Shown here: positions 448 to 16,499 of the stretch, in pieces
How positions within the stretch are numbered: the stretch's first letter is position 1
Layout of the letters: each line of letters begins with the position of its first letter
Assembly (NCBI GenBank): GCA_001794215.1
Contig: MGJK01000011.1
Location: forward strand, 3,170 to 67,169
Length of the DNA: 64,000 bases
DNA from: Candidatus Yanofskybacteria bacterium RIFCSPHIGHO2_01_FULL_44_24
GTDB taxonomy: Bacteria > Patescibacteriota > Minisyncoccia > 2-02-FULL-40-12 > GWA2-44-9
Direction of reading: 5' to 3'
Notes under the pieces: generated by a model
Told to the model about the DNA's origin: nothing
The model's input: the letters and a program-made list of their open reading frames with translations, nothing else
Databases searched by the model: none
Translations under genes and position numbers: made by a program

Positions 448-553
448 CCCCATCTGGGGTCAAGCTACATACTATATACTTTATTAATTTTTGCAAATCC
501 GCCTTCGGCTTTTTACCTGCTACTATCTGAATTATCGCCCAGATGAAGCGGGG
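448..553. ncRNA. X-family structured element copy 1 (CCCCATCTGG ... GCCTTCGGC ... GCCCAGATGAAGCGGGG)
   Basis: Three copies (448-553, 8758-8862, 16400-16499) with conserved outer stem CCAUCUGG/CCAGAUGG, central C(UUCG)G hairpin and 3' AGCGGG tail. Copy 2 carries a compensatory change (CUAUCUGG/CCAGAUAG). Confidence 0.5.
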
Positions 554-1147
554 TTCTATTGTTAGCAGCCACTCATTACATTCGTGGGCTAACAATGAAA
601 AAACCGCTCTCAAGCGGCATTAGTGAATACGCACAAAAAATGGACGTTATCAGCCGCTTTTAGTAAGTAATTGTAAGAATATATTCATCAGTTTTGTGCT
701 TATAAGTATATCAGATGGGCTATCCACAAGTCAACCCCTCACTTGAGGAGGATAGGTTCTGTCAGGCAAGGCTTCGGAACAGGACATAAGTAGTATTTCG
801 ATATATAAATTGCGGTTTGTTTATTTTGAGAACAGTTGCCTTGCTGATCCTCTTCAAGTGCAGGGGTCAATACCGTACCATAGGATAAGCGCTCACCCGG
901 GAAAAGACCTCGAAAACTACCCCTTCCTTTCAATTTCCCTGTCTCTTTTCTGAAGGTAAAAGACGATACTATATAATACCGCGATCAAGACATGAAGCGC
1001 CAAGTGTTTTAAGAATTTATGCTCTGATAATTTCTTATGAATCGCCGGCAGATTGTGAGATCCGCGAGCTATACGAGATTCGGTTGTTTTAGATTTATCC
1101 TCCATACTTTAATACATGATACCACATTTAGAAAAACTATTTATGCC

Positions 1148-1183
1148 CTTGACAAAAACCTGAGTGTTGGTTATCATATAAAA
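1148..1183 (+). promoter_or_regulatory. sigma70-like promoter (TTGACA-17-TATCAT) for the small membrane-protein gene
   Basis: CCCTTGACAaaaacctgagtgttggtTATCATataaaa, about 30 nt upstream of an AGGAG Shine-Dalgarno and the ATG at 1211. Confidence 0.5.
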
Positions 1184-1210
1184 ACTTGGGCCAATCAGAC
1201 AGGAGTCGTG

Positions 1211-1399
1211 ATGGATCAGGTCTTACTGGTACTGGATGTGATCTTTAATATTGTAGGCTACTTTCTTGGAGCGCTCGGTTTGATATTCGGGGTTGTTACA
1301 TCATGCCAGAGCGCATTCGTCAAAGAAGATAAGTTGGCCGATTTAGCGGAGTACACTTTTCTGATTCTTGCTGGATATGTTTTAATCCACTTACTGTAG
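1211..1399 (+). CDS. small hydrophobic membrane protein (62 aa)
   Basis: ATG at 1211 is preceded by AGGAG. Two predicted TM segments (LLVLDVIFNIVGYFLGALGLIFGVV; FLILAGYVLIHLL). Compact unit with promoter and terminator. Confidence 0.5.
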   Translation: MDQVLLVLDVIFNIVGYFLGALGLIFGVVTSCQSAFVKEDKLADLAEYTFLILAGYVLIHLL

Positions 1400-1425
1400 T
1401 CGATCTTCGGATCGACTTTTTAATT
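1400..1425 (+). terminator. rho-independent terminator hairpin GTCGATC-TTCG-GATCGAC + TTTTTA
   Basis: Perfect 7-bp stem with UUCG loop followed by a T-run, directly after the stop at 1399. Confidence 0.6.
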
Positions 1426-1437
1426 TACCGCTATGGT

Positions 1438-2211
1438 CTAACCGGTCAATACAGCCGGTTCCTTCTCCGTTATCGCCACAGTATGTTCAAAATGGGCGGC
1501 TAAACCGCCGTCTTTAGTTGTAAAAACAAATCCGTCATCGCCGTCTTTAATTTTCCAACTGCCCGTAACAACCATGGGTTCGATAGCAATGACCATGCCG
1601 GGAACAAGCTTTTCGCCCGCTCCCTCTTTTCCATAATTAGGCACCTGCGGAGATTCGTGAAGCTCCTTGCCTATGCCGTGACCTACAAGATCACGGACAA
1701 CGCCAAATCCCGCTTTCTCAACAAACTTCTGTATTGCCGCCCCTATATCCCCCAACCTGTTACCGACAACAGCCTTAGCTATTCCTATCTCCAAAGATTT
1801 TTTAGTTACGGAAATTAATTTTTTCTCAAGAGAGTACTTTCGGTTAAAAACCCTTGAGAGCTTACCGCCCTTCGTAACTAAAACCGTAACCGCAGAATCG
1901 GTATGAAATCCTTTATAGAGAACCCCGAAGTCCAACTTGCATAGATCGCCTTCTTTAAGCTTTCTTTCGGAAGGTACGCCGTGAACGATTTCATCATTTA
2001 CGGACACGCAAAGAACGGCAGGAAAATCACCGTACCCCAAAAACGACGGCTTAGCTCCGTATTTTAAAATAAGCTCGTTGGCGAGCTTATTTAAACTTCC
2101 GGTAGTAACCCCCGGCACAGTCTTCTTCTTTAATTCTTCGAGGATGGATTTCAGTATCCTACCGCCTTCTCTCATGGCCTCTATCTCTTTTTTCGTTTTA
2201 AGATTAATCAT
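1438..2211 (-). CDS. map: methionine aminopeptidase type I
   Basis: 257 aa with the pita-bread metal-ligand pattern (FHTD..., HGIGKELHE). Position after adk as in the spc/alpha cluster. Confidence 0.9.
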   Translation of the reverse strand: MINLKTKKEIEAMREGGRILKSILEELKKKTVPGVTTGSLNKLANELILKYGAKPSFLGYGDFPAVLCVSVNDEIVHGVPSERKLKEGDLCKLDFGVLYKGFHTDSAVTVLVTKGGKLSRVFNRKYSLEKKLISVTKKSLEIGIAKAVVGNRLGDIGAAIQKFVEKAGFGVVRDLVGHGIGKELHESPQVPNYGKEGAGEKLVPGMVIAIEPMVVTGSWKIKDGDDGFVFTTKDGGLAAHFEHTVAITEKEPAVLTG

Positions 2212-2905
2212 TCAAAGTATATTTGGACAATTCCTTCCAAACGTCATCGGCAACGCCCTGAATACTATTCTCTCCCGGAATATTTATCGACTCGATGCCT
2301 CTTTTTTCGACATATTCAATGGCAGGAACTGTTCTTTGCTCAAATTCACCAAGACGAACCTTAATAACGTCCGGGTTATCCAAGGTTCTTCTTATGACCT
2401 TGCCTCCGTCTTCGGGACAAATGGACGGATTGGTCTTGGCAACTTCCGGATCGATAGGATGGCTGTTTTTCTGACAAAAAAGTCTTAGACTGTTTCTCTT
2501 CATCGATTCGCCTCCCGATACATGAAGCTTGAAAAGCACTATAGCATCTTTACCGCCGAAGGATTCAAGCTTAGGAATCTCCTGTTCAGCTTCGGGAAGA
2601 GTTCTCGGAGATCCGCTGAATATTATTCCTTTGACTCCGGAGTCAACAAGCTTTTGAACCGCTTCATTTACGACTCCGGCTACCCAATGCGGAGTTAACA
2701 GGATGCCATTATCCCACATATTCTTTTCTTTGATCATATCTTCGTAATCAGGATCTTCCGGCTTAGTATTCCTGAACTTTTCTTCAAGCGCCTGAGTGCT
2801 TTTGAAAATAGTATATCCGATCTTCGGAGCAAGAATGGCAGCCTGGGTATCTTTCCCGGATCCGATCGGCCCCATAAAAATAATAAATTTCTTTCGTAAA
2901 TTCAT
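2204..2905 (-). CDS. adk: adenylate kinase (long form with Cys-containing LID insertion)
   Basis: P-loop GPIGSGKDTQA and the GIIFSGSPRTLPEAE motif (compare GFPRT). Position secY-adk-map. Confidence 0.85.
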   Translation of the reverse strand: MNLRKKFIIFMGPIGSGKDTQAAILAPKIGYTIFKSTQALEEKFRNTKPEDPDYEDMIKEKNMWDNGILLTPHWVAGVVNEAVQKLVDSGVKGIIFSGSPRTLPEAEQEIPKLESFGGKDAIVLFKLHVSGGESMKRNSLRLFCQKNSHPIDPEVAKTNPSICPEDGGKVIRRTLDNPDVIKVRLGEFEQRTVPAIEYVEKRGIESINIPGENSIQGVADDVWKELSKYTLND

Positions 2906-3023
2906 CCAGTTAGAAGTAGCCCCGCCGAGGTCCTTTCGCGGAGTGGTCTCCTGGCCGTGCTTTAGCCGGCCGAGGAACTCCGTCGGACTCGCGACTTCGT
3001 CGCGAGCGAGACTTCTAACGGGA
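2906..3023. repeat. H-family hairpin element copy 2, directly 5' of the adk start codon
   Basis: Terminal inverted repeats CCAGTTAGAAGT ... ACTTCTAACGGGA around a GC-rich inner structure (CTCGCGAC-TTC-GTCGCGAG, GGAG-TGGT-CTCC). The 3' arm ends at the base before ATG. Confidence 0.55.
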
Positions 3024-3091
3024 TCAATAAATTCATATTATCAGATCATCCATAAAAAGCCAGATACTAACCGAAAATAAAAGCCCCCAAA

Positions 3092-3448
3092 TTATAGGAG
3101 CTTTACGATAGCAGGAGAGGAGGGAAGGAAGTGCTTACCTTCTTGTTTATACAGCTCAAGAGACCATGCCTGAATTTGACCAGTAATAAAGCGTTCTAAT
3201 TCTTCAGGATTTTCAGCCCGAAAAGATGCGGACATCATCTGGCTGTGAGCTTGCAGGTTGTCCAGCGGTCCAGAGATTGAAGTAAAAATTACATAGATAA
3301 AGAACATGATCCCGCCCCTCGCCTCGATAACCCACGCTCGGATATTACTACAAACTATATTTGGGGTAAAGTACATAGGATTTTTGATCATCTCTTTTTG
3401 CCTAAAATAAAATGCCCTACGAAATGGGCACTTTAAATATACGGCCAA
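3092..3448 (-). CDS. hypothetical protein (doubtful ORF in the secY-adk spacer)
   Basis: 118-aa ORF only. Overlaps the predicted secY terminator hairpin (GCCC-TACGAAAT-GGGC at about 3400-3430). Composition partly typical of AT-rich non-coding DNA. Confidence 0.2.
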   Translation of the reverse strand: MAVYLKCPFRRAFYFRQKEMIKNPMYFTPNIVCSNIRAWVIEARGGIMFFIYVIFTSISGPLDNLQAHSQMMSASFRAENPEELERFITGQIQAWSLELYKQEGKHFLPSSPAIVKLL

Positions 3449-3454
3449 AAAGCA

Positions 3455-4717
3455 CTAGTACTCGTACATAGAGAGCTGGGCATCCACCTGCTTCATGGTT
3501 TCCAAAGCCACTGAAACAACGATTAATATCGAGGTGCCTCCAACCTGAAGAGCCGTAATACCGGTGAAGCCCTGAACAATATTCGGTAATACCGCTATCA
3601 CTCCCAAAAATATAGCTCCGACCAAGGTAACTCGATTCAATAAGTGATTAAGAAATTGAGCCGTCATCGGTCCGGGCCTGATACCGGGGATATATCCGCC
3701 TTGTTTCTGAATGTTTTCTGAAATAGATTTAGGATCAAAGGTAATCGCGGTGTAGAAATACGTAAATAGGACGACTAAGAGGAAGTAAAACATGGAATAC
3801 CAGACTTGGGATTGCAAAAAACCGTTAACTATCTGAGAAATTCTTGAAATTACGGCGATATTTGTTCCGGCCAAAAAATTAGCAATCATGCCCGGAAAAA
3901 GCAGAATGGATAAGGCGAATATGATCGGGATAACGCCGGCATTATTGACCCTCATCGGTAAATAAGTAGATACCCCGCCATAAACCTTGAATCCCCTGAC
4001 TCTTCGAGCATAGTTAACCGGAATGTTCCTTTGGGCCTCGGATATATAAACTACACCGACAACAACTATAAGGGCGACTATGATAAAGCCGGCGTAAGAG
4101 AACAGATCTTGGCCCGATGTGTAAGAAAAGAGAGCCTGTTGAACGCTTCCCGGGAAACCAGCCACTATGCCGGCTAAAATCAAAAGGGATGTTCCATTTC
4201 CAAGATTTTTTTCGGTGATCAATTCACCAAGCCACATAAAGAATATGCTACCAGCAGTAATCACGAGCAGTGTTGAAGCCCATTCTACCATGCTTAAGCT
4301 GTCGATAACTCCTTGCCGGGATAAAAGAACCAGAAAACCATATCCCTGAAGAATAGCCAAAGGAACGGTCAACACCCTTGAATACTGATTAAATCTCGCC
4401 CGACCGGCTTCTCCTTCGTATTTATACATCTGCTCCATGGCCGGGAATATCATCGTTAAGAGCTGCATGATAATTGAGCTGGTGATATAGGGACCCAAAC
4501 CGAGCATGCCTATCGAAAGGGCGGAAAATGACCCTCCTGTGAAGGCGCTGATCAGGCCGAAAAATTGATTCTGGCTCAAAAAATCCTGAAGCCTCGAAGC
4601 ATCTATCGCCGGAATAGGAATATTCGAGATAATCCTGAAAACAACCAAAAGTCCGAAGATAAATAAAACCTTATTTCTTAATTCCGGTCTTTTAAAAATT
4701 TGAAGAATACGCTGCAT
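3455..4717 (-). CDS. secY: preprotein translocase subunit SecY
   Basis: 420 aa with 10 TM segments and typical SecY motifs (GLGPYITSSIIMQLL). Position after rplO. Confidence 0.95.
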   Translation of the reverse strand: MQRILQIFKRPELRNKVLFIFGLLVVFRIISNIPIPAIDASRLQDFLSQNQFFGLISAFTGGSFSALSIGMLGLGPYITSSIIMQLLTMIFPAMEQMYKYEGEAGRARFNQYSRVLTVPLAILQGYGFLVLLSRQGVIDSLSMVEWASTLLVITAGSIFFMWLGELITEKNLGNGTSLLILAGIVAGFPGSVQQALFSYTSGQDLFSYAGFIIVALIVVVGVVYISEAQRNIPVNYARRVRGFKVYGGVSTYLPMRVNNAGVIPIIFALSILLFPGMIANFLAGTNIAVISRISQIVNGFLQSQVWYSMFYFLLVVLFTYFYTAITFDPKSISENIQKQGGYIPGIRPGPMTAQFLNHLLNRVTLVGAIFLGVIAVLPNIVQGFTGITALQVGGTSILIVVSVALETMKQVDAQLSMYEY

Positions 4718-4820
4718 TCGAGTTTATAAAGTTTGTAAAGTTATAATGTTTATAAAGTTTTAGTGAATCTGAGCCTTACTTATTAACTTTATTAACTTTA
4801 AGAACTTGATGAACTTTTAA

Positions 4821-5291
4821 CTATTTGATTGTCCCTCCGGCTTTCAGAACTTTGTTTTTGGCTGATTTGGAGAACTGAAAACCTTCGAACTGCATTTTTT
4901 TCTTAAGCTCTCCCCCGCCAAGTATCTTTACCCCGTTTGCAATCTTATCGATCAATCCTTTTTCTTTAAGCAGACCGGGCGTAACGACATCTACGTCAAA
5001 TTGATTGAAAAATCCTAAATTTAAAACTCCGGGCTTTGTATGCCTGAGCTGAAAATACCGGTGCTTTGGATGGGGATTGGAACCTCCGGGCTTTTTTGAG
5101 GCTCCTCTTTGCTTGGGAAACAGCTGCCAAAGCCTGCTATCGCCGCCCCTGAAACCTGGCTTGACTCCTGCGCCGGCCCGGGATTTTTGACCTTTCATAC
5201 CTTTGCCGGAGTATGTCCCGCGTTTACCGCCACGGCCGACTCTTTTTCGGTTTTTTCGAAGCGTTTTAGATTTTAATTGTGATAAATCCAT
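4821..5291 (-). CDS. rplO: 50S ribosomal protein L15
   Basis: N-terminus KNRKRVGRGGKRGTYSGKGMKGQKSRAG typical of L15. Confidence 0.9.
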   Translation of the reverse strand: MDLSQLKSKTLRKNRKRVGRGGKRGTYSGKGMKGQKSRAGAGVKPGFRGGDSRLWQLFPKQRGASKKPGGSNPHPKHRYFQLRHTKPGVLNLGFFNQFDVDVVTPGLLKEKGLIDKIANGVKILGGGELKKKMQFEGFQFSKSAKNKVLKAGGTIK

Positions 5292-5374
5292 AGTCGTTTA
5301 ACTAAAGTTAAAATTTAAAAATCAAAATGCAAAATTCCTGTAACTCATTAAAATCTTTGATTTTAATGAGCATC

Positions 5375-5944
5375 CTAAACTTTTAACTTTTCGCTTTTAA
5401 TTTTTAATTTCTTTAAGGCTTCTATCGTAGCCATGGCAATATTGATCTTATTATTTGTTCTTTCGATGAGCTTTCCGGTCAATGCAGTTATGCCTAAAAG
5501 CTTAGCGACAACTCGAACGGGTCCGCCGGCTTTTACTCCACCGATCGTCGGCTTTAATAAAACTACGGCACTATTGTATTTGGCTTCAACTTGATAAGGA
5601 ATGGTACCCTTAACAATCGGGATTGTTATAAGATTTTTCTTAGCCCTGTTGAAAGCTTTTTGGACTGACTGAGCGACGTCTCTTCCTTTATTAATACCTA
5701 TGCCAACCCTTCCTTTGCCGTCTCCGATGACAATAGTCGCTCGAAAACTAAATCTCTTGCCGCCCTTAGTAACCCTTGTTACCCTGGCAATATCAATGAC
5801 TTTCTGTTCAAACTCCGATTTAGCATCGCCGGAATGCCCTCCTCTGCGAGGTCCGCGTCCACCCCTGCCTCCTCTTCCGCCCATTCTGTTCCTATTGTCA
5901 CCCCTGGGGACATTGCCTATATTATTTTGTTTAATTGGTTCCAT
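5375..5944 (-). CDS. rpsE: 30S ribosomal protein S5 with N-terminal Gly/Arg-rich extension
   Basis: S5 dsRBD and C-terminal domain (VTRVTKGGKRFSF..GDGKGRVG..). Start moved to the internal Met (MEPIKQ) because the upstream 8 codons lie inside the H3 repeat. RGGRGGRGPRRGG extension. Confidence 0.85.
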   Translation of the reverse strand: MEPIKQNNIGNVPRGDNRNRMGGRGGRGGRGPRRGGHSGDAKSEFEQKVIDIARVTRVTKGGKRFSFRATIVIGDGKGRVGIGINKGRDVAQSVQKAFNRAKKNLITIPIVKGTIPYQVEAKYNSAVVLLKPTIGGVKAGGPVRVVAKLLGITALTGKLIERTNNKINIAMATIEALKKLKIKSEKLKV

Positions 5945-6058
5945 CCCGTTAGAAGTAGTGCAAAGCACCCACTACCACCGTGCGGTGCGATACATTTCTT
6001 ATTATTGTTTTACCGATATTCATGTTATTCAACCACGTTAGGGGTACTTCTAACGGGA
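5944..6058. repeat. H-family hairpin element copy 3, filling the entire rplR-rpsE spacer
   Basis: TCCCGTTAGAAGTAG ... TACTTCTAACGGGA terminal inverted repeats (14/15 complementary). About 85 nt variable interior. Confidence 0.55.
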
Positions 6059-6062
6059 TTAA

Positions 6063-6422
6063 TTAAATTTTAAGCCCTCCCGCTCTCAATCCTTCAACTA
6101 AAGCCTTTATCCGACCATGATATTTAGATCCTCCCCGGTCAAGCACGGCTTCTTTGATTCCCATTTCTTTGGCTTTTTCAGATAACGCCTTAGCAATCGA
6201 GGAGGCCTTCTCGGTCTTAGTACCCTTTGCTTTATTGCTTTTTGAAACTGAACCCTTGATACTCAAGATTGTCTTACCGGTCTGATCATCAATAAATTGA
6301 ACTAAAAGATTTCTGTTACTCTTAAAAACAGATATCCGGGGACGCGCCTTGGTGCCGGCTACCTTGGCTCTTACTCTCTTATGGCGCCTCATTCTATTTA
6401 ATTTTTTATTTTCCGGTTTCAA
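6063..6422 (-). CDS. rplR: 50S ribosomal protein L18
   Basis: 119 aa. Conserved L18 core (RLSVFKSNRNLLVQFIDD..). TTG start. Confidence 0.85.
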   Translation of the reverse strand: MKPENKKLNRMRRHKRVRAKVAGTKARPRISVFKSNRNLLVQFIDDQTGKTILSIKGSVSKSNKAKGTKTEKASSIAKALSEKAKEMGIKEAVLDRGGSKYHGRIKALVEGLRAGGLKI

Positions 6423-6458
6423 TTTATTTTTAATTGATGTCCCTAATCGAACTCTTTA

Positions 6459-7004
6459 TTATCCGGCAGCTACCGCTTTCTTGCCGGCCTTTTTCTTTAT
6501 AACCTCCCCCTGATATCTGATTCCGCTGCCCTTGTAAGGTTCCGGCTCTCTCTTGGACCTTATCCCGGCGGCCACGTGGCCTATAAGCTCATTATCGATG
6601 CCGGATATCTTTATAACGCTCTTTTCAACTTTAAAAGTAACCCCCTCCGGCGCTTTAACCATGATTGGATGTGAATACCCAAGGTTTAGTTCCAGATCAT
6701 TGCCCTTTACATTAGCCTTGTAACCGATGCCTTCGAATTCAAGAACTTTTTCAAAACCGTCGGTAACTCCCTTGATCATGTTCTGAATAAGGGCTCTAAA
6801 CAATCCCCAGGAAGCATTGTCAATTACGGCCTGACCGCTCACCGGTTTAATCATAACTGATCCGTTAGAAACGCTTGCAGATACCGAACCGGAAATCTTC
6901 TTCTTTAATTCACCCTTGGGGCCCTTAACCGAAATCAGACCATCGTTAATCTGGACATCTACTCCTTTTGGTACTGGTATTGGTTTTTTGCCGATTTTCG
7001 ACAT
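6459..7004 (-). CDS. rplF: 50S ribosomal protein L6
   Basis: 181 aa with two L6 repeats (PIPVPKGVDV...GPKGEL). Confidence 0.9.
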   Translation of the reverse strand: MSKIGKKPIPVPKGVDVQINDGLISVKGPKGELKKKISGSVSASVSNGSVMIKPVSGQAVIDNASWGLFRALIQNMIKGVTDGFEKVLEFEGIGYKANVKGNDLELNLGYSHPIMVKAPEGVTFKVEKSVIKISGIDNELIGHVAAGIRSKREPEPYKGSGIRYQGEVIKKKAGKKAVAAG

Positions 7005-7126
7005 AAGCTTCGCTAAATTAAAAACGTAAAACTAAAAATTTAAAACTCTGGAAATCCAAAATTTTCCTTGGAGAAATTTTGGATAACATTAATTTTGCAC
7101 TTTTCGCTTTGCATTTTGAATTTTTA
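7005..7126. repeat. A-type AT-rich intergenic repeat (rpsH-rplF spacer)
   Basis: GCTTCGCTAAATTAAAA...CAAAATTTTCCTTGGAGAAATTTTG...TTTGCATTTTGA module shared with 7529-7645, 10653-10768, 11408-11529, 13410-13527 and 14630-14745. Confidence 0.7.
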
Positions 7127-8459: not shown

Positions 8460-8679
8460 ATATTAACGGATTGTTATGCTATCACTAAATTTGCTTTTTG
8501 AAAAGGGATTATCCATATGGAACAGTTTCTTACTCGCGGAAGATTCTTTATCGTTAGCTGGCTTGGACTTACATTTTTGGTCACTTATTTACTCCCTCAA
8601 GCATCACTTGCCGTACTTCTGCTCGTTTCCGGAATACCAGCTTGGTTACTGTCTGGCTGGCTATCCAAGCCCCGTACCG

Positions 8680-8705
8680 CCAAATAAGGCGGTTTTTTAT
8701 TGGGG
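8680..8705 (+). terminator. plus-strand rho-independent terminator (ACCGCC-AAATAA-GGCGGT + TTTTTTA) inside the minus-strand r-protein cluster
   Basis: Perfect 6-bp GC stem followed by a T-run on the plus strand only. On the minus strand the same hairpin is preceded, not followed, by the U-run. Confidence 0.45.
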
Positions 8706-8757
8706 CTCCATCCCCCACCAATTTCGTCCGCCAATCGTATCGCAAGTCGCTCCGTCC

Positions 8758-8862
8758 CGCCCTATCTGGATCCAAATTAACTTTTGGCACACTATCATCT
8801 TACAAATCGCCTTCGGCTTTTCTTCCTGTTAATACCCTTCTTTGTGCCCAGATAGAGCGGGG
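8758..8862. ncRNA. X-family structured element copy 2, inside a 412-bp non-coding insertion between rplX and rplE
   Basis: CCCUAUCUGG ... CGCCUUCGGCU ... GCCCAGAUAGAGCGGGG. The stem carries a compensated C-to-U / G-to-A change relative to copies 1 and 3. Confidence 0.5.
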
Positions 8863-9968: not shown

Positions 9969-9980
9969 TTAGATTTTTGA

Positions 9981-10187: not shown

Positions 10188-10247
10188 TGACTAATGTGAC
10201 TAAGGCTATAACCGATCTGGCTTTAGTCTTTAGACTTTTAGCCGTGG

Positions 10248-10652
10248 CTATCGTTTCACGATTCTTGTTTTTAGGGGCAATTTATGGGAACCCAACCGCA
10301 AAGCCTCTTTAGCGTCGGCCTCAGAAACGCCGTCGATCTCGAATATTATCTTACCAGCCTCAACCGGTACAATAAAGTGCGAAAGGCCTCCCTTGCCTCC
10401 ACCCATACCCACCTCGGCGCTCTTAGCGGTCCTGGGCTTATCCGGAAATACTCTGGTCCATATTTTACCGCCCCTTTGAACAAATCGAGCCATAACCTTT
10501 CTGGCGGATTCTAACTGATTGGCCTTAACCCAAGATGATTCCCCCGCTTTAAGACCAAACGTACCGAAGCTTAACTCAACGCCTCTTGTGGCGCGCGCTT
10601 TCAACTTGCCTCGATGCACCTTCGGATGTTGTATTCTGGCTGGCTGTAGCAT
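10248..10652 (-). CDS. rplP: 50S ribosomal protein L16
   Basis: 134 aa. MLQPARIQHPKVHRGKLKARATRGVELSFGTFGLKA. Confidence 0.95.
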   Translation of the reverse strand: MLQPARIQHPKVHRGKLKARATRGVELSFGTFGLKAGESSWVKANQLESARKVMARFVQRGGKIWTRVFPDKPRTAKSAEVGMGGGKGGLSHFIVPVEAGKIIFEIDGVSEADAKEALRLGSHKLPLKTRIVKR

Positions 10653-10768
10653 GGCTTCGCTAAATTAAAAGTTAAAAGTTAAAAATGAAAAATTCAGGAA
10701 ATTCAAAATTTTCCTTGGGGAAATTTTGAATAACATTAATTTTGATTTTTGATCTTTGCATTTTGATA
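10653..10768. repeat. A-type AT-rich intergenic repeat (rpsC-rplP spacer)
   Basis: Over 90% identical to the copies at 13410-13527 and 14630-14745. Contains the perfect palindrome CAAAATTTTCC-TTGG-GGAAATTTTG and ends with GCTTCGCTAAATT abutting the start codon. Confidence 0.75.
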
Positions 10769-11407
10769 TTACTTATCAAAGACTTCACCTTTATATATCC
10801 AAACCTTAACGCCTACCGTGCCATATGTAGTATGGGCGGTAGCTTTAGCAAAATCGATATTAGCCCTAAGCGTCTGCAGCGGTAAATTCCCCTCTTCAAG
10901 ATGCTCCGATCTTGCTATTTCTGAACCGTCAAGACGGCCGCCCATCTGAAGCTTGGCTCCCTTGGCTTGCTTATTAGACAATATCTTCGCAAGGGTCTGC
11001 TTAAGAATTCGCCGATAGGGAATCCTCTTCTCCACCTGGTCAACCATAGATTCGGCCATTATCTGAGCTGATAACTCTGGGCTTTTTATCTCTTGAATCT
11101 CTATCCTTACCGAAACTTTATCTTTAAGAAGTCGCTGAACGGCTTTTTTAATATCTTCCACTCCTCCACCGCCTCGTCCTATCAAAAGACCGGGCCTGGC
11201 AGTATGAATAATTATACTTAAGGCATCACTGCCCCTTTCAATCTCTATCTTATCAATACTCATGTTCCTGAGCTTTGATTCTAAAAAGGTTCGGACTTTC
11301 AAATCGTCTTTAAGATAAGGGACGTATTTTCGCCCACCAAACCATCGGGACAGCCAGTCCTTATTAATGCCGAGTCGTAATGATGTTGGTGATATTTTTT
11401 GTCCCAT
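10769..11407 (-). CDS. rpsC: 30S ribosomal protein S3
   Basis: 212 aa with KH domain and S3 C-terminal domain (MGQKISPTSLRLGINKDW). Confidence 0.95.
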   Translation of the reverse strand: MGQKISPTSLRLGINKDWLSRWFGGRKYVPYLKDDLKVRTFLESKLRNMSIDKIEIERGSDALSIIIHTARPGLLIGRGGGGVEDIKKAVQRLLKDKVSVRIEIQEIKSPELSAQIMAESMVDQVEKRIPYRRILKQTLAKILSNKQAKGAKLQMGGRLDGSEIARSEHLEEGNLPLQTLRANIDFAKATAHTTYGTVGVKVWIYKGEVFDK

Positions 11408-11529
11408 AATCGCTTCGCTAAATTTAAAATTTAAAAATCATAGTTAAAAATTATTGAAATTCAAAACTTTGTTAACAAAGTTTTGAGTAACCTGAATTTT
11501 ACATTTTGACATTTGCATTTTGATATTCT
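11408..11529. repeat. A-type AT-rich intergenic repeat, divergent copy (rplV-rpsC spacer)
   Basis: ATCGCTTCGCTAAATTTAAAA...CAAAACTTTGTTAACAAAGTTTTG...TTTGCATTTTGAT. Confidence 0.65.
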
Positions 11530-12036
11530 TTACACCGACTTTCTCTGAAATAATTTTCTACCCATATTAAATACTCCCTTCTTCGATCCTATTTCCCTTT
11601 TAATTTCGTGCTTTTTCTCTTCAGCGTGATGAGCCTCAGTACTCAATTCTTCTTTATGCTTAGCGTCCTGCTCCTTAGTTTTACTGCGCTTGAGACCGGG
11701 AACCCTCTCATCCAAAACTATCGTAACATGGCTTGTCTTTTTCTGGATCGGCTCAGCTCTTCCGAAGCCCTTGGCTCTGAATCGTTTCAACTTTATACCT
11801 TCATTAACAAAGAATTTCTTAACGTAAAGATTATCTCTTACCATCCCGAAACTGTTCTCGGCATTAGCAATAGCGGAGTTAAGAAGTTTTCTAAGATTAT
11901 CGGCCGGTTTCCTAATGAATACCTCGAGCTGATTCAGGGCGTCAACGGCACTCTTTCCTTTGACCAAATTAACCACCGCCCTGACTTTTCTGGGCGCTAT
12001 CCTTAATCTGTTTAATTTTGCGGTGACTTCGGTCAT
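11530..12036 (-). CDS. rplV: 50S ribosomal protein L22 with about 55-aa basic/acidic C-terminal extension
   Basis: L22 core (RIAPRKVRAVVNLVKGKSAVDALNQLE) followed by a Lys/Glu-rich tail. Confidence 0.85.
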   Translation of the reverse strand: MTEVTAKLNRLRIAPRKVRAVVNLVKGKSAVDALNQLEVFIRKPADNLRKLLNSAIANAENSFGMVRDNLYVKKFFVNEGIKLKRFRAKGFGRAEPIQKKTSHVTIVLDERVPGLKRSKTKEQDAKHKEELSTEAHHAEEKKHEIKREIGSKKGVFNMGRKLFQRKSV

Positions 12037-12125
12037 AAATAAACTATCACTTAATCAAGGAACAATGAACATACAGCCCCCCTAATCAATTGTTTTTATG
12101 TTCAAATGTTTCCTGTTTGTATGTT

Positions 12126-12482
12126 TTACTTTTTCGGCGCCGCTGCCTCCGCCGCCGGCGCCGCTTTAGCCGCCTGGGCCGTTTCTATCTCTTTTTGCTT
12201 CTGGGCGGCCTCAAGCTCTCTTTGCATTCTTCCTCCATGCCTTAAGAATTTACGGGTATGGGAAAACTCTCCAAGCTTATGTCCGACCATATCTTCGGTG
12301 ATTAATACCGGGATATGAAATCTCCCGTTGTGCACGCCGAACGTATAGCCTATCATTTCAGGAACGATTGTACAGGCTCTGGACCAGGTCTTAATAACCG
12401 TTTTATCTCCGGCTCTAAGCTTGCTTATCTTCTTAAGCAATTTCTCATCAACGTATGGCCCTTTTTTGAGTGATCGTGACAA
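12126..12482 (-). CDS. rpsS: 30S ribosomal protein S19 with Ala-rich C-terminal extension
   Basis: [19 protein letters not shown]...HNGRFHIPV, a canonical S19, plus [18 protein letters not shown] tail. Confidence 0.9.
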
Positions 12483-12584
12483 CTCGGTTTATAAAGTTTG
12501 TAAAGTTATAAAGTTTATAAAGTTTTGTAAATCTGAACTTTTACCTCTCACTTTATGAACGTTATGAACTTGATGAACTTTTAA
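12483..12584. repeat. B-type AT-rich repeat with 9-10 bp periodic AAGTTTATAA units (rplB-rpsS spacer)
   Basis: GTTTATAAAGTTTGTAAAGTTATAAAGTTTATAAAG... Related copies at 4718-4820, 9179-9257, 21970-22050 and 37886-37986. Confidence 0.65.
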
Positions 12585-13409
12585 CTATTTAATCCGTCTT
12601 CGTATAATGAACTTATTCGACTTATTCTTCCTGTTTCTGGTTTTTACTCCACCCGTTATTCTGCCCTGAGCGGTCTTCGGTCTTCTAGTTCCCCTACCCT
12701 GTCTTCCTTCACCGCCTCCATAAGGATGATCTACCGGATTCATCGCCGTACCCCTAACCTTCGGTCTTATACCGAGCCAGCGCGACCTCCCGGCTTTTCC
12801 TGAAACAACGGAACTGTGCTCCATATTTGAAACATTGCCTATCGATGCGTAGCATTCCTCCGAAATCATTCTTGTTTCTGAAGAAGGCATGACCAATTGA
12901 ACATATCCTCCTTCGCTTGCCAAAACCGTAGCGCCGTTCCCGGCCGATCTCACCATTTTCCCGCCGCTACCAGGAAATGGTTCTATATTATGAACTATAG
13001 AGCCTTGGGGAATATTTTTGAGCTTCATCCTATTCCCGGGCTTAAGCGGTGCTTTTTCAGATGTAATGATTTTATCTCCCGGTTTAAGATCCTGGGGTGC
13101 AATGATGTATCTCTTTTCGCCATCGGCGAAGTGAAGACGGGCAATTCGGGCATTTCTGTTTGGATCATATTCTAAGGAAAAAACGGTAGCCGGAATATTA
13201 AATTTATCCTGCTTGAAATCAACGAGACGATATTGTTTCTTGGCTCCTCCGCCACGATGACCGGCGGTAATTCTTCCCTGGTTATTCCTTCCCCCGGTTC
13301 TTTTAAGATGCTCCTTCAAAAACCTTAAAGGCTCAGTCTTGGTTAATTGAGAAAAGTCCGGTCCTATCATGTGTCGCCTTGAAGGCGTTGTCGGCTTGTA
13401 ATACTTCAT
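12585..13409 (-). CDS. rplB: 50S ribosomal protein L2
   Basis: 274 aa. GRNNQGRITAGHRGGG ... HPYGGGEGR motifs. Confidence 0.95.
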   Translation of the reverse strand: MKYYKPTTPSRRHMIGPDFSQLTKTEPLRFLKEHLKRTGGRNNQGRITAGHRGGGAKKQYRLVDFKQDKFNIPATVFSLEYDPNRNARIARLHFADGEKRYIIAPQDLKPGDKIITSEKAPLKPGNRMKLKNIPQGSIVHNIEPFPGSGGKMVRSAGNGATVLASEGGYVQLVMPSSETRMISEECYASIGNVSNMEHSSVVSGKAGRSRWLGIRPKVRGTAMNPVDHPYGGGEGRQGRGTRRPKTAQGRITGGVKTRNRKNKSNKFIIRRRIK

Positions 13410-13527
13410 CGCTTCGCTGAATTAAAAATTAAAAGTTAAAAATGAAAAATTCAGGAAATTCAAAATTTTCTTTGGGGAAATTTTGAATAACATTAATTTT
13501 GATTTTTGATATTTGCATTTTGATCTT
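13410..13527. repeat. A-type AT-rich intergenic repeat (rplW-rplB spacer)
   Basis: Near-identical to 10653-10768 and 14630-14745. Confidence 0.75.
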
Positions 13528-13926
13528 TTAGGCCTTTGCCTGTTCTATTGTATAACCCTTTTTTAAAACTACGATTGCTTTCTTAAATCCTGATCTGAAT
13601 CCCGGATGCCTGCCCAAATCTTTTCGTTTCTGGGGCATATTTAAAATCTTAACGTCCTTCACCTTAACATTGAATAATTTTTCAACCTTTTCTCTGATCT
13701 GGGTTTTATTCGCATCAGGAAAAACTTTGAAAATATACTGATTATACGGAGCAATCAATGCCGATTTCTCGCTTATATAAATACTCTTGATAACACGGTA
13801 AGCATCGGAGTTGTCGGCTGAAATATGATCCGATAAGCTTCCCCCGGATGCAGATTCTTCCTGATTTTTTAATTCAGTTTCCTCGGATTGATCCTTTTTG
13901 GGTTTTTTGCTGAATAAGGCGGACAT
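13528..13926 (-). CDS. rplW: 50S ribosomal protein L23 with N-terminal extension
   Basis: L23 core (VIKSIYISEKS...FKV) preceded by a roughly 40-aa acidic/Ser-rich extension. Confidence 0.8.
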   Translation of the reverse strand: MSALFSKKPKKDQSEETELKNQEESASGGSLSDHISADNSDAYRVIKSIYISEKSALIAPYNQYIFKVFPDANKTQIREKVEKLFNVKVKDVKILNMPQKRKDLGRHPGFRSGFKKAIVVLKKGYTIEQAKA

Positions 13927-13993
13927 TTGTCTATGGCTTCAGGTCTAAGGCTTAAAGCAATGGGGCTTTAGTCTTTAGACTTTTAGCTATTAG

Positions 13994-14629
13994 CTATTTA
14001 CTAAAGTATGTCAATGAATCTTTCGTCATTAAAAGATATCTGCTGCCAAGAACGGCGGCTGCATTCAAATTCCTTGCCTCATAAACATCGGTTCGGGGAA
14101 TATTCCTTGAGGCTATCTTAATATCATTTTTGCTGTCGCTTGGAACAACTATCATCATGGATTGGTTCTTTTTTTCGACAAACAAATTTAAAACTGCCCT
14201 GGTAACCGCCGCCATTTCTCTTGTCTTCCTGTTCTCAAGCTTAATATCATCCAAAACTATAATCTGGCCGTCTCGAGCTTTAGCTGACAACGCAGTAAAC
14301 AAAGCTTTTTTGGCCATTTTCTTATTTATTTTTTTCTTAAAAATCCTCTCTTTAGTCGGACCGCCGGTAACTCCTCCGCCCTTCCAGATCGGAGATCGTA
14401 TAGAACCGTGACGGGCCCTACCGGTTCCTTTCTGTCTCCAGGGCTTCTTTCCACCGCCACGCACCTCTCCCCTTCCTTTGGTATGGGCGATCGTCTGTCT
14501 TTGGTTGGCTATCTGAGAAGTTACAACCTGATGCAGTAAATCTTTATTCATCTCCAAATTAAAAACCTGATCTACGAGATCAATCTGTCCGACTTTCTCT
14601 GCTTTTTGATTATACAGCGGCAATTTCAT
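13994..14629 (-). CDS. rplD: 50S ribosomal protein L4
   Basis: 211 aa. KGRGEVRGGGKKPWRQKGTGRARHGS, a canonical L4. Confidence 0.95.
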   Translation of the reverse strand: MKLPLYNQKAEKVGQIDLVDQVFNLEMNKDLLHQVVTSQIANQRQTIAHTKGRGEVRGGGKKPWRQKGTGRARHGSIRSPIWKGGGVTGGPTKERIFKKKINKKMAKKALFTALSAKARDGQIIVLDDIKLENRKTREMAAVTRAVLNLFVEKKNQSMMIVVPSDSKNDIKIASRNIPRTDVYEARNLNAAAVLGSRYLLMTKDSLTYFSK

Positions 14630-14745
14630 CGCTTCGCTAAATTAAAAATTAAAAGTTAAAAATGAAAAATTCAGGAAATTCAAAATTTTCCTTGGGAAAA
14701 TTTTGAATTTCATTAATTTTGATTTTTGATCTTTGCATTTTGATC
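14630..14745. repeat. A-type AT-rich intergenic repeat (rplC-rplD spacer)
   Basis: Near-identical to 10653-10768 and 13410-13527. Confidence 0.75.
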
Positions 14746-15354
14746 TTATTGTGTTTGGACCATAACTACTCCCCCATTATTACCGGGAACCGCTCCCTTT
14801 ACCGCTAAAAGTCCTTTTTCCTCATCTATCGCCACAACTCGAAGACCTCTGACGGTAAATTTATCATTTCCCATCCTACCGGGCATCCTCATACCTTTTA
14901 AAGTATGCTGAGGAAATCTTTGTCCGATTGAACCGGCATGACGCATTACAGAATGATGGCCGTGACTGGCAGGCATACCGGAGAATCCATGTCTTTTTAC
15001 CACGCCCTGAAAACCTTTTCCTTTAGTCATCCCCGTAACCTTCACCAAATCGCCGACGGCGAAGAGAGAAACATTGAGCTTATCTCCGCGCTTTAGCTCT
15101 CCGGGAGTAGTTCTGAATTCTTTTAAGACTTTGAAAGTTCCCAAGTCCTTGGTATGTCCTTTCTGAGCCTTGGTCACGTTTTTTTCCTTTCTTTTTCCGA
15201 ATCCAACCTGAACACCTTCGTATTTATCTTTTTCCTTCGTTCTAATCTGAACCACAGTATTCGTTTCCGCCTCAATAACCGTCACCGGAGTGACGTCACC
15301 TTTATCATCATATATCTGGGACATGCCCATTTTTTTACCTAATATGAACTTCAT
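14746..15354 (-). CDS. rplC: 50S ribosomal protein L3
   Basis: 202 aa. GMTKGKGFQGVVKRHGF... canonical L3. Confidence 0.95.
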   Translation of the reverse strand: MKFILGKKMGMSQIYDDKGDVTPVTVIEAETNTVVQIRTKEKDKYEGVQVGFGKRKEKNVTKAQKGHTKDLGTFKVLKEFRTTPGELKRGDKLNVSLFAVGDLVKVTGMTKGKGFQGVVKRHGFSGMPASHGHHSVMRHAGSIGQRFPQHTLKGMRMPGRMGNDKFTVRGLRVVAIDEEKGLLAVKGAVPGNNGGVVMVQTQ

Positions 15355-15363
15355 AGCTAAAAC

Positions 15364-15627
15364 TTATAATCCTCTTTCTAAAATACTATTGTAAATCTTT
15401 AATAACTCTTCTTTATCATCCGATCTTTCTATTAATTCATGAACTACTTGAATAGTCCTGCTTGGAACCATAAAAACTCCTCTTCCAAAACTCCGTATAG
15501 CGCTCCTTTCTTCATCATTAACGGCTAAATCCGACAGCCTTTTAGTCAGCTTGTCTCTTTCGGACTTTGTTTTATCTACTAGTTCTCTTTCCATTTTCCA
15601 CAAAAAACACCGGACTAGCCGGTGCAA
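15364..15627 (-). CDS. hypothetical small protein inserted between rpsJ and rplC (probably 76 aa from MERELV)
   Basis: ORF ends 10 nt before the rplC start. No recognisable family. Charged helical N-terminus, GRGVFMVPSRTIQVVHELIE core. Confidence 0.4.
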   Translation of the reverse strand: MHRLVRCFLWKMERELVDKTKSERDKLTKRLSDLAVNDEERSAIRSFGRGVFMVPSRTIQVVHELIERSDDKEELLKIYNSILERGL

Positions 15628-15840
15628 CCTAAGCTAATCTTAACAACTTATCTATTAAATGGTTCTATATTGATTTAAAACCAATCTTGATTATTTAAGG
15701 CATCATACCAATAATGAATTTTTAGTAAACCACTGGGCGCGGGAGGATTCCTCCTCCGGCCTTTCGTGGATAAATTCTACTATCGATTACTACCTTATTC
15801 TCTCGTCCCGTTCTTTGAGGCGAGAAGTAAGGGAATAATT

Positions 15841-16185
15841 TTAAAGTCTTTCTTTCAATTTTCCCAGCTTGTACTCAATGGTGTCCAAGGCGTCACGTTG
15901 TTCCAAGAATCTGTCCTGCAAATCGGTTCCCAGAACTTCCTCAGCCTTTAAATCGTTTAAGATCCTACTAATGCTATCCAAGGTCTCTGTCATTTGGCCT
16001 ATAACTTTTTCCGTATCAGTTTGTCCTTCAATTTTTGGTTCTTGGGGTTCTGAGGTTTTATCCGGAATATCTTCCCCTAAATTTCTCACTCTCAATTCTT
16101 CTTCATGCTGTTCAACTGATTCTTCGGGAGTATTTGGTTTTTTAAATTCTTTTGACATATCATTACTTATTGATTTTATACTCAT
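15841..16185 (-). CDS. hypothetical acidic coiled-coil protein (114 aa) inserted in the S10 operon
   Basis: Glu/Asp-rich, predicted helical (LNDLKAEEVLGTDLQDRFLEQRDALDTIEYKLGKLKERL). No family recognised. Confidence 0.4.
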   Translation of the reverse strand: MSIKSISNDMSKEFKKPNTPEESVEQHEEELRVRNLGEDIPDKTSEPQEPKIEGQTDTEKVIGQMTETLDSISRILNDLKAEEVLGTDLQDRFLEQRDALDTIEYKLGKLKERL

Positions 16186-16209
16186 GCCGCCCCAGCACCA
16201 ATCTTTTCT

Positions 16210-16377
16210 TTACTTGTTTTCTTTCAGTTTTTCTGTGTCGCCAAACAATTCATGTCTTGACGTTTTGTGAGGACCTCCGCATGTATCACACACAGGATTT
16301 GTTTTCATTTCTTCTCTTAATTCTTCCTCGGTCTCTGTTTCGGTGGGGTGCTTTTGTTTTGGTTCTTGGAGTTCCAT
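16210..16377 (-). CDS. hypothetical 55-aa ORF with CxxC motif (below the ORF-track length cut-off)
   Basis: Hand-translated as MELQEPKQKHPTETETEEELREEMKTNPVCDTCGGPHKTSRHELFGDTEKLKENK. Its stop lies 25 nt upstream of the start of the 114-aa ORF. Not in the ORF track. Confidence 0.25.
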   Translation of the reverse strand: MELQEPKQKHPTETETEEELREEMKTNPVCDTCGGPHKTSRHELFGDTEKLKENK

Positions 16378-16399
16378 GTTATTTATCCACGAATCCCGG

Positions 16400-16499
16400 C
16401 CCCATCTGGAGCGACACTCGTAATATTACTTGGTTTATTTTGCAAAACGCCTTCGGCTCTATCTGGTCTTTACTGTCATTCTTGCCCAGATGGAGCGGG
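16400..16499. ncRNA. X-family structured element copy 3, in the insertion between rpsJ and rplC
   Basis: CCCCAUCUGGAG ... ACGCCUUCGGCUCU ... GCCCAGAUGGAGCGGGA. Confidence 0.5.

Follow-up and report, generated by a model that had tools for sequence, protein, structure and literature searches.

The window, by which we mean the whole 64-kb stretch of DNA analysed here from a groundwater CPR bacterium, holds a cluster of ribosomal-protein (r-protein) and 23S genes in which a hairpin-forming element of ~105–115 nt, here called X, occurs in three copies (Table 1). Copy 1 stands past a terminator, 230 nt before the 5′ end of the 23S gene, and copy 3 is reached from the rpsJ stop codon across a 55-nt hairpin. 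The three copies are real and far above chance. The covariance model (CM) search proposed in the initial annotation was carried out with a model built without copy 1, which recovered that copy with a score of 61.3 bits (E=1e-12) and the other two with E ~4e-24; beyond these three, it returned nothing at E<0.3 on the sense strand of the 64-kb window and no X copy in the other 47 kb. The 3′-arm motif GCCCAGATGGAGCGGG, allowing up to three mismatches, has five matches in the window against 0.24 expected, three of the five being the X copies, and CAAAWCGCCTTCGGC occurs without mismatch in copies 2 and 3 only, copy 1 having one extra C. Both searches confirm a three-copy element located at breaks in the r-protein cluster, as originally described; the bounds first given (448–553, 8758–8862 and 16400–16499) are replaced by the paired extents of the MFE folds.

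Table 1. Element X, its companion hairpins and neighbouring signals in the window
Feature	Coordinates	Strand	Context	Basis or remark
X copy 1 (module B)	441..554	-	23S leader	MFE helix extents, CM match
X copy 2 (module B only)	8756..8861	-	~10 nt past rplX stop codon	MFE fold, CM
X copy 3 (module B)	16393..16501	-	downstream of rpsJ	MFE fold, CM
Mini-hairpin GCC-GAA-GGC of copy 1	501..509	-		plus-strand letters GCCTTCGGC
Central mini-hairpin of copy 2	8809..8817	-		sequence and MFE fold
Central mini-hairpin of copy 3	16449..16457	-		sequence and MFE fold
Module A	16502..16556	-	begins in rpsJ stop codon, directly 5′ of copy 3	
Module-A-like hairpin	557..598	-	directly 5′ of copy 1	read from sequence
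Intrinsic terminator, 23S leader	603..618	-	just upstream of module A and copy 1	
Promoter-like site TTGACT-18-TATACT	705..734	-		10/12 matches, TG present

Ten further distinct copies were found in Yanofskybacteria-like genomes (L numbers below designate loci of these relatives), bringing the total to 13. On the sense strand, the outer helix of X pairs CCCGCUCYAUCUGGG with UCCAGAURGGGCGGG over 15–17 bp, is GC-clamped and surrounds ~75–80 nt. The outer stem of the initial annotation is real but longer than stated, because the upstream CCCGC pairs with the GCGGG that had been taken for a tail. Inside the helix, two AU-rich unconstrained strands enclose a mini-hairpin, A-GCC-GAA-GGC-G, whose core is identical in 12 of the 13 copies and has a GUAA loop in the thirteenth (L138); it shows no covariation, its GCC/GGC being constant throughout. 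RNAalifold, unaided, recovers the same structure. Among single-stranded positions X conserves G(A/U)UUUGCA, and even this stretch is lacking in L141 and L137. A model in which X is purely a helix leaves unexplained both the GCC-GAA-GGC core, with its lack of covariation, and the conservation of arm sequence between paralogs.

Several observations point to the minus strand, which has the sense of both the r-protein genes and the 23S gene, as the strand on which X would be structured. Read on this gene-sense strand, the core helix of the 13 copies contains 22 G·U cells but not a single A·C cell, and the C·A mismatches of the plus strand become G·U pairs on the minus strand, so that the sense-strand helix is continuous. 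The sense RNA has the lower free energy in 15 of 16 copies, the mean difference being 5.7 kcal/mol, and folding z-scores lie between −3.2 and −3.5 for the sense strand, compared with −1.8 to −2.9 for the antisense strand. All 13 copies are co-oriented with the genes, and the variant loop of L138 is GUAA, a GNRA loop, when read as sense RNA, whereas the plus-equivalent strand has UUAC. In an AT-rich hairpin family nearby the strand asymmetry runs the other way, and a general strand bias therefore does not account for X. Single-stranded DNA hairpins that tolerate G·T pairs would yield an identical asymmetry. These observations reverse the initial reading of X as a plus-strand RNA, antisense to the ribosomal genes and capped by a canonical C(UUCG)G tetraloop, which we now hold to be extremely improbable. 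UUCG does occur in the plus-strand sequence and the helix can form there with mismatches, yet in the register of GCCUUCGGC the C-G closing pair would stack on a C·C mismatch, and, whichever strand is folded, the ViennaRNA MFE structure of GCCTTCGGC has a 3-bp stem and a loop of 3 nt. The plus-strand T-run that follows GCCTTCGGC in copies 1 and 2 is not conserved, being absent from copy 3, L128 and L130.

Covariation inside the X helix proper is modest. Twelve core pairs are formed in all 13 copies, and of 18 helix pairs one shows a two-sided change, five show wobble changes (G·U only) and ten never vary. The two-sided change is the one first noticed in copy 2; it is genuine and recurs, pair 14 being C-G in six copies, U-A in six and U-G in one, with a stepwise compensation among rpsJ orthologs from CG (window, L128 and L137) through UG (L129) to UA (L134). 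Two-sided change is confined to this pair, and a shuffle control equalled the observed covariation in 4 of 500 runs, a figure that is not a strict probability. Over the 13 copies, the pattern of substitutions agrees with base pairing on the sense strand. The arms and core are unchanged between orthologs even where the host L5 proteins are 79–84% identical to that of the window, whereas the spacers separating arms from core cannot be aligned. Intact arms and core beside randomised spacers show purifying selection since insertion, not neutral decay. The arm sequences of old X paralogs are also conserved beyond pairing needs. Elsewhere, elements of the same architecture in the rplV-rpsC gap of L134, L140 and L136 have wholly different yet complementary arms, and L136 also holds an X variant with entirely different, still complementary arms.

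The 13 copies occupy five kinds of site: after rpsJ, after rplX, between rpsH and rplF, upstream of rplC and in the 23S leader. Copies in relatives thus use the three sites of the window and two new ones, all within the r-protein cluster or the 23S leader, in a sample of relatives drawn around r-protein genes only, so that restriction to ribosomal loci is demonstrated for the 64-kb window alone. Copy 1 has an ortholog in L134 (18296–18413); those of copy 2 are in L134 (9488–9603), L143 (1967–2081), L130 and L131–133, and those of copy 3 in L128, L129, L134, L137 and L141. X is absent from L139 and L142 despite the same gene order, and L140 and L136 have variants only. Gains at new sites are seen at rplX-rplE in one subclade, at rpsH-rplF in L138 and in the 23S leader of the window and L134: the leader terminator directly abuts the conserved leader in L142, whereas in the window and L134 the two are separated by module A and X. 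The presence and absence of X among relatives shows that it was inserted or duplicated into parts of the r-protein/23S supercluster that were already transcribed, both between cistrons and in the leader. The initial argument against an origin as a mobile element with terminal inverted repeats is accordingly weaker than claimed. The ends of the 13 copies show no consistent direct repeat; weak TTTTC sequences flank both sides of the 23S-leader insertion. There is no integrase among the called genes of the loci examined.

A second hairpin, module A, stands before X at the majority of sites; it begins either at a terminator or at the preceding gene's stop codon. Its order is P1, P2 (CCAA/UUGG), a tandem G·A loop and P3, and the same fold is found in 13 instances, with GA/GA constant in all of them; P1 and P2 covary strongly, 105 of 117 P1 cells being paired. 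The hairpin preceding copy 1 has P1 UUGUUAG/CUAACAA, P2 CCAC/GUGG and a GA...GA loop, and its counterpart in L134 shares this architecture although its stems differ in sequence. The leader terminator is conserved in L134 and L142, and its MFE fold shows an alternative antiterminator pairing. The promoter-like site has the same hexamers in L134 and would transcribe the leader, copy 1 and 23S. As copy 1 and the L138 copy at 3213–3328 follow strong terminators, both would be present in RNA only if these terminators are read through.

Comparison with known classes supports the original view of X as an RNA-like, helix-constrained element outside Rfam. At the gathering threshold, cmscan with Rfam 15 reports only the 23S 5′ end and three tRNAs in the window. 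At E≤10, copy 1 with its flanks gives one chance match, to CRISPR-DR32 (19 bits against a gathering threshold of 48), and the loci with the other two copy types give none at the element. The Rfam families of r-protein leaders are likewise not matched, and no rRNA mimicry by X was found in the available 23S parts. X is not an integron attC site, since its ends are CCCGC.../...GCGGG and lack the AAC/GTT cores (R″/R′ = RYYYAAC ... GTTRRRY), nor an intrinsic terminator, since the outer helix has no U-tract and a terminator scan reports none at the elements. No rrn-type boxA antiterminator (GCUCUUUAACAA-like consensus) lies within X. REP/BIME sequences, which are RAYT-linked, have a GC-rich palindromic unit of ~20–40 nt, whereas X is ~105–115 nt long with an AU-rich interior, and no RAYT was seen in the window or in the r-protein loci of relatives. 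As in MITEs, all copies have inverted ends of ~15 nt; MITEs are dispersed in many copies and either orientation, whereas X has three copies in the 64-kb window, none of them beyond the ribosomal cluster, and a single orientation in all 13 copies. An RNase III substrate is expected to offer some one and a half to two turns of uninterrupted double-stranded RNA, and the 15–17 continuous sense-strand pairs of X, including G·U, lie at the lower end of known substrates.

Among characterized repeats, X would resemble Correia and ERIC elements in its mode of action. Correia elements (CREE/nemis) of Neisseria have a similar length (~105–155 nt), inverted-repeat ends and a directional core, are often co-transcribed with their neighbours and change adjacent gene expression, and once co-transcribed form mRNA hairpins that are bound or cleaved by RNase III (PMC2649163). 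However, Correia elements exist in more than 100 dispersed copies in both orientations, carry 26-bp ends and an IHF site and are flanked by a TA target duplication, whereas X has three copies per 64 kb, sense only and in the ribosomal cluster, with no duplication, no sequence similarity to Correia and orthologs kept across genera-level divergence. The ERIC and REP/BIME elements of enterobacteria are, like X, imperfect palindromes in transcribed operon intergenic regions; they fold in RNA and alter the stability of flanking mRNA segments (PMC3184786). They differ from X in sequence, in being genome-wide and, for REP, in their much shorter units and link to RAYT transposases, while X contains a mini-hairpin that is invariant and is accompanied by module A. 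RNase III sites, too, are typically long helices that separate cistrons or flank rRNA, such as those of phage T7 early mRNA, rRNA precursor stems and the rplL-rpoB spacer, where intercistronic cleavage splits segments and the upstream product keeps a protective hairpin. These sites are single-copy and not repeat families, and the X helix, whose cleavage is putative, is shorter. The autoregulatory r-protein leaders of E. coli, exemplified by the sites of S8 at rplX-rplE and of L4 in the S10 leader, are likewise structured RNAs in r-protein operons, and copy 2 sits at exactly the junction where S8 acts. Unlike X, in which a single motif recurs at several places, the 23S leader among them, each of these leaders mimics an rRNA site, is single-copy and serves one operon.

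Our preferred interpretation, to which we give a probability of roughly 0.45, is tentatively that X is a duplicatively spread, selection-maintained intercistronic or leader RNA stem-loop that would act as a nuclease processing or stability element. An alternative is a cis-regulatory RNA through which one specific protein (perhaps an r-protein, a factor of Nus type or a dedicated RNA-binding protein) would co-regulate several parts of the r-protein cluster together with the 23S leader, by translational control or processive antitermination, the helix being only a scaffold on which the invariant hairpin is displayed. The near-invariant core with its GUAA exception, the arm conservation among paralogs, the tandem G·A of module A (a typical protein-binding feature), the sharing of copies between r-protein mRNA and rRNA leader and the position of two copies just downstream of terminators are all compatible with it. 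Such a role is nevertheless unlikely, given that X is absent from close relatives and therefore dispensable, and that its sites differ by lineage; in addition, the available 23S parts show no rRNA mimicry, a boxA-like sequence, AUCUUUAAGGA, lies outside X, ~40 nt downstream of copy 1, and no candidate binding protein was found.

A selfish or neutral DNA repeat of MITE, REP or PATE type, possibly mobilised as a strand-specific single-stranded DNA hairpin and devoid of host function, would explain the inverted ends, small size (~105 nt), non-coding nature and lineage-specific gains of X; other hairpin repeat families share its intergenic gaps, arm-variant elements exist, and single-stranded DNA hairpins tolerate G·T pairs. 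We consider it unlikely too: sequence inspection reveals no target-site duplication at any copy, the window has no transposase or partner IS with these ends, phage and plasmid collections gave no match, and the copies are few (three in 64 kb), in one orientation and in one cluster; neither the purifying selection on arms and core nor the opposite asymmetry of the AT-rich neighbours agrees with it. The position of copy 1 and L138 3213–3328 directly after strong terminators, where a promoter would be useful, instead recalls a DNA-level promoter or operator whose AT-rich 3′ spacer would drive 23S, rplC and a small ORF, with the arms as flanking protein sites. Reading from sequence, copy 1 has TTGCAA-16-TAGTAT and its L134 ortholog TTGCAA-16-TAAGAT, and TATAAT-like boxes align in several rpsJ-site copies. 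However, sigma-70 hexamers at a conserved 16–18 nt are not found, as the distance from TTGCAA to the TA-rich box falls from 16 nt in 23S-leader copies to 11 nt at rpsJ sites and rplX-site copies lack a −10 box; promoter-like matches in the region (31, against 34 expected) are not above chance, the L142 leader is transcribed through its terminator without X, and the correlated CG/UA change and G·U-only pattern favour arm-arm pairing over independent protein sites. This possibility is therefore highly improbable.

Under the processing or stability interpretation, X would be a clade-specific RNA stem-loop module read on the strand of the ribosomal genes. Its long helix in polycistronic mRNA and the pre-23S leader may offer entry to an RNase III-type double-strand nuclease or bar exonucleases, so that transcript segments on either side would be processed and decay independently; module A might cap the 3′ end of the upstream cistron, and the invariant mini-hairpin probably contributes a sequence-specific determinant for a putative partner. 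As such, X seems to be a new element for intercistronic processing or stability, not a new class of biology. A bolder and distinctly unlikely proposal is a post-transcriptional regulon specific to this CPR lineage, with X and module A as its cis-elements and one sequence-specific RNA-binding factor serving it. If so, this factor would recognise the GCC-GAA-GGC hairpin and/or the tandem G·A motif and would tie the way several r-protein mRNA segments are expressed or processed to 23S precursor maturation, and ribosome synthesis in this lineage would be coordinated in a mode not described in model bacteria.

The three stretches that the initial annotation had singled out as copies of one structured element, here called X (a hairpin element of about 105-115 nt), are present as it described them, with conserved blocks that align at both ends and in the middle. 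The 3′-arm motif of X has five matches in the window against 0.24 expected by chance, and the central 15-mer is matched exactly in copies 2 and 3 only, copy 1 carrying one extra C. A covariance model built without copy 1 recovers that copy at E=1e-12; no further sense-strand match to the X model was found below E=0.3 in the 64 kb searched with filters off, and the arm motif was not found in the rest of the window. The minus strand, which is the sense strand for X, encodes the S10-spc r-protein cluster as well as secY, adk and map. Copy 2 begins about 10 nt past the rplX stop codon, copy 3 follows the rpsJ stop codon after a 55-nt hairpin and is itself followed, after 15 nt, by the start of a 55-aa acidic ORF, and copy 1 is separated from the 23S 5′ end by 230 nt. 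The rplX locus is identical on MGKL01000022.1 (GCA_001795655.1, Rifle groundwater), and the nearest named L5 proteins come from Candidatus Yanofskybacteria.

Features of the window and related loci (L128-L143, r-protein/23S loci of Yanofskybacteria-like relatives) in which they recur
Feature	Position (nt)	Strand	Site	Related loci
23S gene, 5′ end	209 to 1	minus	opens the window	
X in 23S leader (copy 1)	441-554	minus	23S leader	L134
X after rplX (copy 2)	8756-8861	minus	rplX-rplE gap	L134, L130/L143 (one sequence), L131-133 (identical to L134 copy)
X after rpsJ (copy 3)	16393-16501	minus	rpsJ-rplC gap	L128, L129, L134, L137, L141
X just upstream of rplC				L138
X between rpsH and rplF				L138
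Module A	16502-16556	minus	directly 5′ of copy 3	L128, L129, L134, L136, L138, L140, L141, L142
Module A variant	598-557	minus	directly 5′ of copy 1	
Promoter-like site	734-705	minus	23S leader	
Intrinsic terminator	618-603	minus	23S leader	
Small membrane-protein ORF, 56 aa, two-helix	8517-8687	plus	between copy 2 and rplE, antisense between rplX and rplE	
Terminator of the 56-aa ORF	8676-8693	plus		
Small acidic ORF	16210-16377	minus	directly after rpsJ-site element	L129, L134, L136, L142
AT-rich hairpin repeat family, ~110 nt	14638-14748, 13425-13521, 11426-11521, 10661-10771, 7015-7123		five r-protein intergenic gaps	

Relatives were sampled around r-protein genes only: DNA was fetched around L5 homologs at 76-84% identity and searched with covariance models, filters off, and a strict-pattern scan of metagenomes gave seven loci, six of them real. 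Together with the window they provide 13 distinct copies of X, every one oriented with the genes. L140 and L136 hold only variants of the element, and none was found in the r-protein loci of L142, L139 and one further contig, the last two having compact clusters. Scanning genome collections with CGCCTTCGGC-N(15-40)-CCCAGNNNNAGCGGG, a pattern that proved too GC-rich, returned only chance matches from high-GC genomes, and phage and plasmid collections contained no match to X.

The initial annotation had placed the structured RNA on the plus strand, antisense to the genes, because of a C(UUCG)G tetraloop. This choice is not borne out. Folded as RNA, the minus strand of the three copies gives a continuous helix of 15-17 bp with energies of −38.5, −38.3 and −35.9 kcal/mol (z −3.2 to −3.5), against −27.2, −29.6 and −32.9 kcal/mol (z −1.8 to −2.9) for the plus strand, because positions that are C·A mismatches in the plus strand become G·U pairs in the minus strand. 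The sense fold is the better one in 15 of 16 copies, arm variants included, by a mean of 5.7 kcal/mol. Nor does the tetraloop form: on both strands GCCUUCGGC folds into a 3-bp stem capped by a 3-nt loop, and the C(UUCG)G register would sit on a C·C mismatch. An antisense RNA is accordingly an extremely improbable account of X. A strand call based on one loop motif can mislead, and the pattern of G·U versus A·C is a better guide. Strand-specific hairpins of single-stranded DNA are a formal alternative source of the G·U pattern. The AT-rich hairpin family, three of whose five members have the exact 24-mer AAAAATTCAGGAAATTCAAAATTT in common, folds better on the plus (antisense) strand, the reverse of X, so that one mutational strand bias cannot account for both families. 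Relatives have their own lineage-specific AT-rich hairpin repeats in those same gaps. Over the full 64 kb, long-range stems (12 bp or more counting G·U pairs, a loop of 30-120 nt and at least five G-C pairs) number 18 on the minus strand compared with 3.7 ± 2.1 in shuffles, and 8 on the plus strand; examples outside the cluster lie at 24689-24811, 25812-25900, 25934-26095 and 46965-47045.

Structure was scored on a model-guided alignment of the 13 copies, with the structure string corrected for a one-column shift on the 3′ arm. In the X helix 95.7% of cells are paired, 12 core pairs being paired in all 13 copies, and pairing falls to 24-56% when partner columns are shifted. RNAalifold recovered the outer helix and the central hairpin and no further conserved helix inside X; a CAAA/UUUG pairing that we considered is not kept in all copies. 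The compensatory pair flagged in copy 2 recurs (CG in six copies, UA in six, UG in one). Among the rpsJ-site orthologs it is CG in the window, L128 and L137, UG in L129 and UA in L134, a stepwise compensatory path from CG through UG to UA. Five further pairs vary through G·U only; the totals are 22 G·U cells and none with A·C. The proposed covariation of the helix stands in part: the two-sided change is real, but it concerns one of 18 pairs and is modest, with a covariation score of 0.147 versus 0.111 in shuffles, a value reached by 4 of 500 shuffles. Selection for pairing itself is also supported by elements whose arms differ and yet stay complementary: the rplV-rpsC gap of L134, L140 and L136 holds one with the same architecture and flanks as X and quite different, perfectly complementary arms, and the rpsJ-site element of L136 has had its inner arm replaced with complementarity retained. 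Twelve of the 13 copies have an identical core, A-GCC-GAA-GGC-G; the remaining one has GUAA as its loop, which on the sense strand is of the GNRA type. The spacers on either side of the core cannot be aligned between orthologs while arms and core are kept, so purifying selection acts on arms and core. For the core it is the sequence that is conserved, and a function of the helix alone leaves this conservation unexplained.

Copy 3 and most copies in relatives are preceded by a second hairpin, module A. A variant of this hairpin precedes copy 1, and copy 2 is without one. Its thirteen instances fold alike, with a P1 of 7-10 bp and variable sequence, a P2 of CCAA/UUGG or CGAA/UUCG with a 2-nt bulge on its 3′ side, a 2×2 tandem G·A loop between P2 and P3 that is invariant (13/13), and a variable P3 hairpin closed by GAA, GGA, GUA or GUAA. 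The second pair of P2 is CG in ten instances and GC in three, and several P1 pairs show two-sided changes, with 105 of 117 P1 cells paired. Module A, a covarying hairpin, gives independent support for the sense transcript as the structured molecule. It begins at the rpsJ, rplV, rpsH or tuf stop codon or only a few bases from it, or directly after a terminator. No Rfam family matches module A, which may be an RNA motif distinct from X.

Eight lineages share a conserved 23S leader. In the window, a promoter-like site (TTGACT-18-TATACT) is followed by about 95 nt of leader, the intrinsic terminator, the module A variant and copy 1. The 5′ half of the terminator has a possible pairing partner in the leader, AAGCGGC, and this antiterminator pairing is used in the MFE fold. 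The region 596-734 (minus), which has no Rfam match, looks like an attenuator in this predicted fold; its promoter, terminator and antiterminator layout is conserved in L134 and L142. In L142 the conserved UUUCUUUAACGG leader directly follows the terminator, with module A and X lying in between in the window and L134, so X was inserted into a region already transcribed. A boxA-like AUCUUUAAGGA occurs at ~395-405 (minus), ~40 nt downstream of copy 1, in leader sequence conserved in L134. A CCCC...GGGG-type long-range stem, CACUUGAAGAGGAU/AUCCUCCUCAAGUG (738-866, 93-nt loop), lies just upstream of the promoter. The rplR-rpsE gap is bridged from end to end by a perfect 15-bp long-range stem, AUCCCGUUAGAAGUA/UACUUCUAACGGGAU (5943-6059, minus), whose 3′ arm extends into the probable rpsE AUG. 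Almost identical arms make up a hairpin at 299-346 (minus) in the 23S leader, and this hairpin is conserved in six lineages. The 23S gene directly follows map within the r-protein supercluster (window 1-209), as in eight related lineages, and tRNA-Ile and tRNA-Ala (55782-55855 and 57761-57835) lie 1.9 kb apart with no adjacent rRNA gene, so the rRNA genes are unlinked.

Other insertions share these gaps. One hot spot of insertion is the rpsJ-rplC gap, which in L136 holds a RelB/YafQ toxin-antitoxin pair; the 114-aa and 87-aa ORFs of this gap in the window have no Pfam match. The small acidic ORF has a conserved N-terminus, M..EPK(I/Q)E, in the window and four relatives. An antisense small ORF with terminator, comparable to that of the window, occupies the rplX-rplE gap of L136 and L137, with or without X. 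The motif AGAUUGGUG-NN-GGG is found repeatedly (window ~16188-16205 and ~8712-8725, minus; L134, L140), lying ~5-10 nt ahead of the start codons of inserted small ORFs and also following stop codons; it could be a ribosome-binding or coupling motif specific to the clade. Since AGAUUGGUG..GGG generally precedes start codons in the clade, its presence does not prove copy 2 a segmental duplicate of the rpsJ-site unit. The 3′ arm of copy 2 could pair with the downstream terminator, which is not kept in L134 and is treated as chance.

The initial annotation recognised no Rfam family in X, and a search agreed, giving no match at either gathering thresholds or lenient ones; no description of X turned up in the literature searched. 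It does not qualify as a REP or attC element, a boxA, a terminator or a promoter: no boxA consensus lies inside it, and sequences or genes defining attC, retron or 5S-like elements are missing. Mimicry of rRNA was also discarded, core and arms having no match in ~2-3 kb of relatives' 23S.

Our results show X to be a repeat that is sense-oriented and constrained by its helix, and that has been inserted at intercistronic and leader sites of the ribosomal supercluster and kept by selection. By analogy, it would act like known co-transcribed intergenic repeats. The long helix in RNA could be a processing site for a double-strand-specific nuclease or a barrier to exonucleases; segments on either side of X would then be uncoupled, and module A would cap the cistron upstream. 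Processing or stability elements of this sort are known from co-transcribed Correia repeats (PMC2649163) and ERIC/REP repeats (PMC3184786), and we give this reading of X a probability of about 0.45. The invariant mini-hairpin suggests an additional specific partner. That X is primarily a specific protein-binding regulator seems unlikely to us, with core conservation in its favour. We would doubt to the same degree that X is a functionless mobile DNA repeat. Gains at new sites speak for such a repeat, the rplX-site copy being limited to one subclade and the rpsH-rplF copy to L138; no target-site duplication was seen at the copies and no transposase in the window. A MITE was rejected, given no duplication, few copies (three in the 64 kb) and one orientation. 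A promoter or operator module is improbable, since the consensus scan is not above chance, the hexamer spacing is not conserved and the L142 leader does without X.

To our knowledge, control of ribosome synthesis is almost undescribed in CPR/Patescibacteria, which cannot be grown alone. X, module A and the other hairpin families in the same gaps suggest that, in one CPR clade, the ribosomal supercluster is extensively punctuated at the RNA level. If X is a processing or stability signal, it would offer a handle on operon structure in metatranscriptomes, through its defined coordinates, its covariance model and compensatory mutants that can be tested. Should X have a specific binding partner, it would be part of a new regulatory circuit, the more interesting if one factor reads the motif that r-protein mRNA and the 23S leader have in common.
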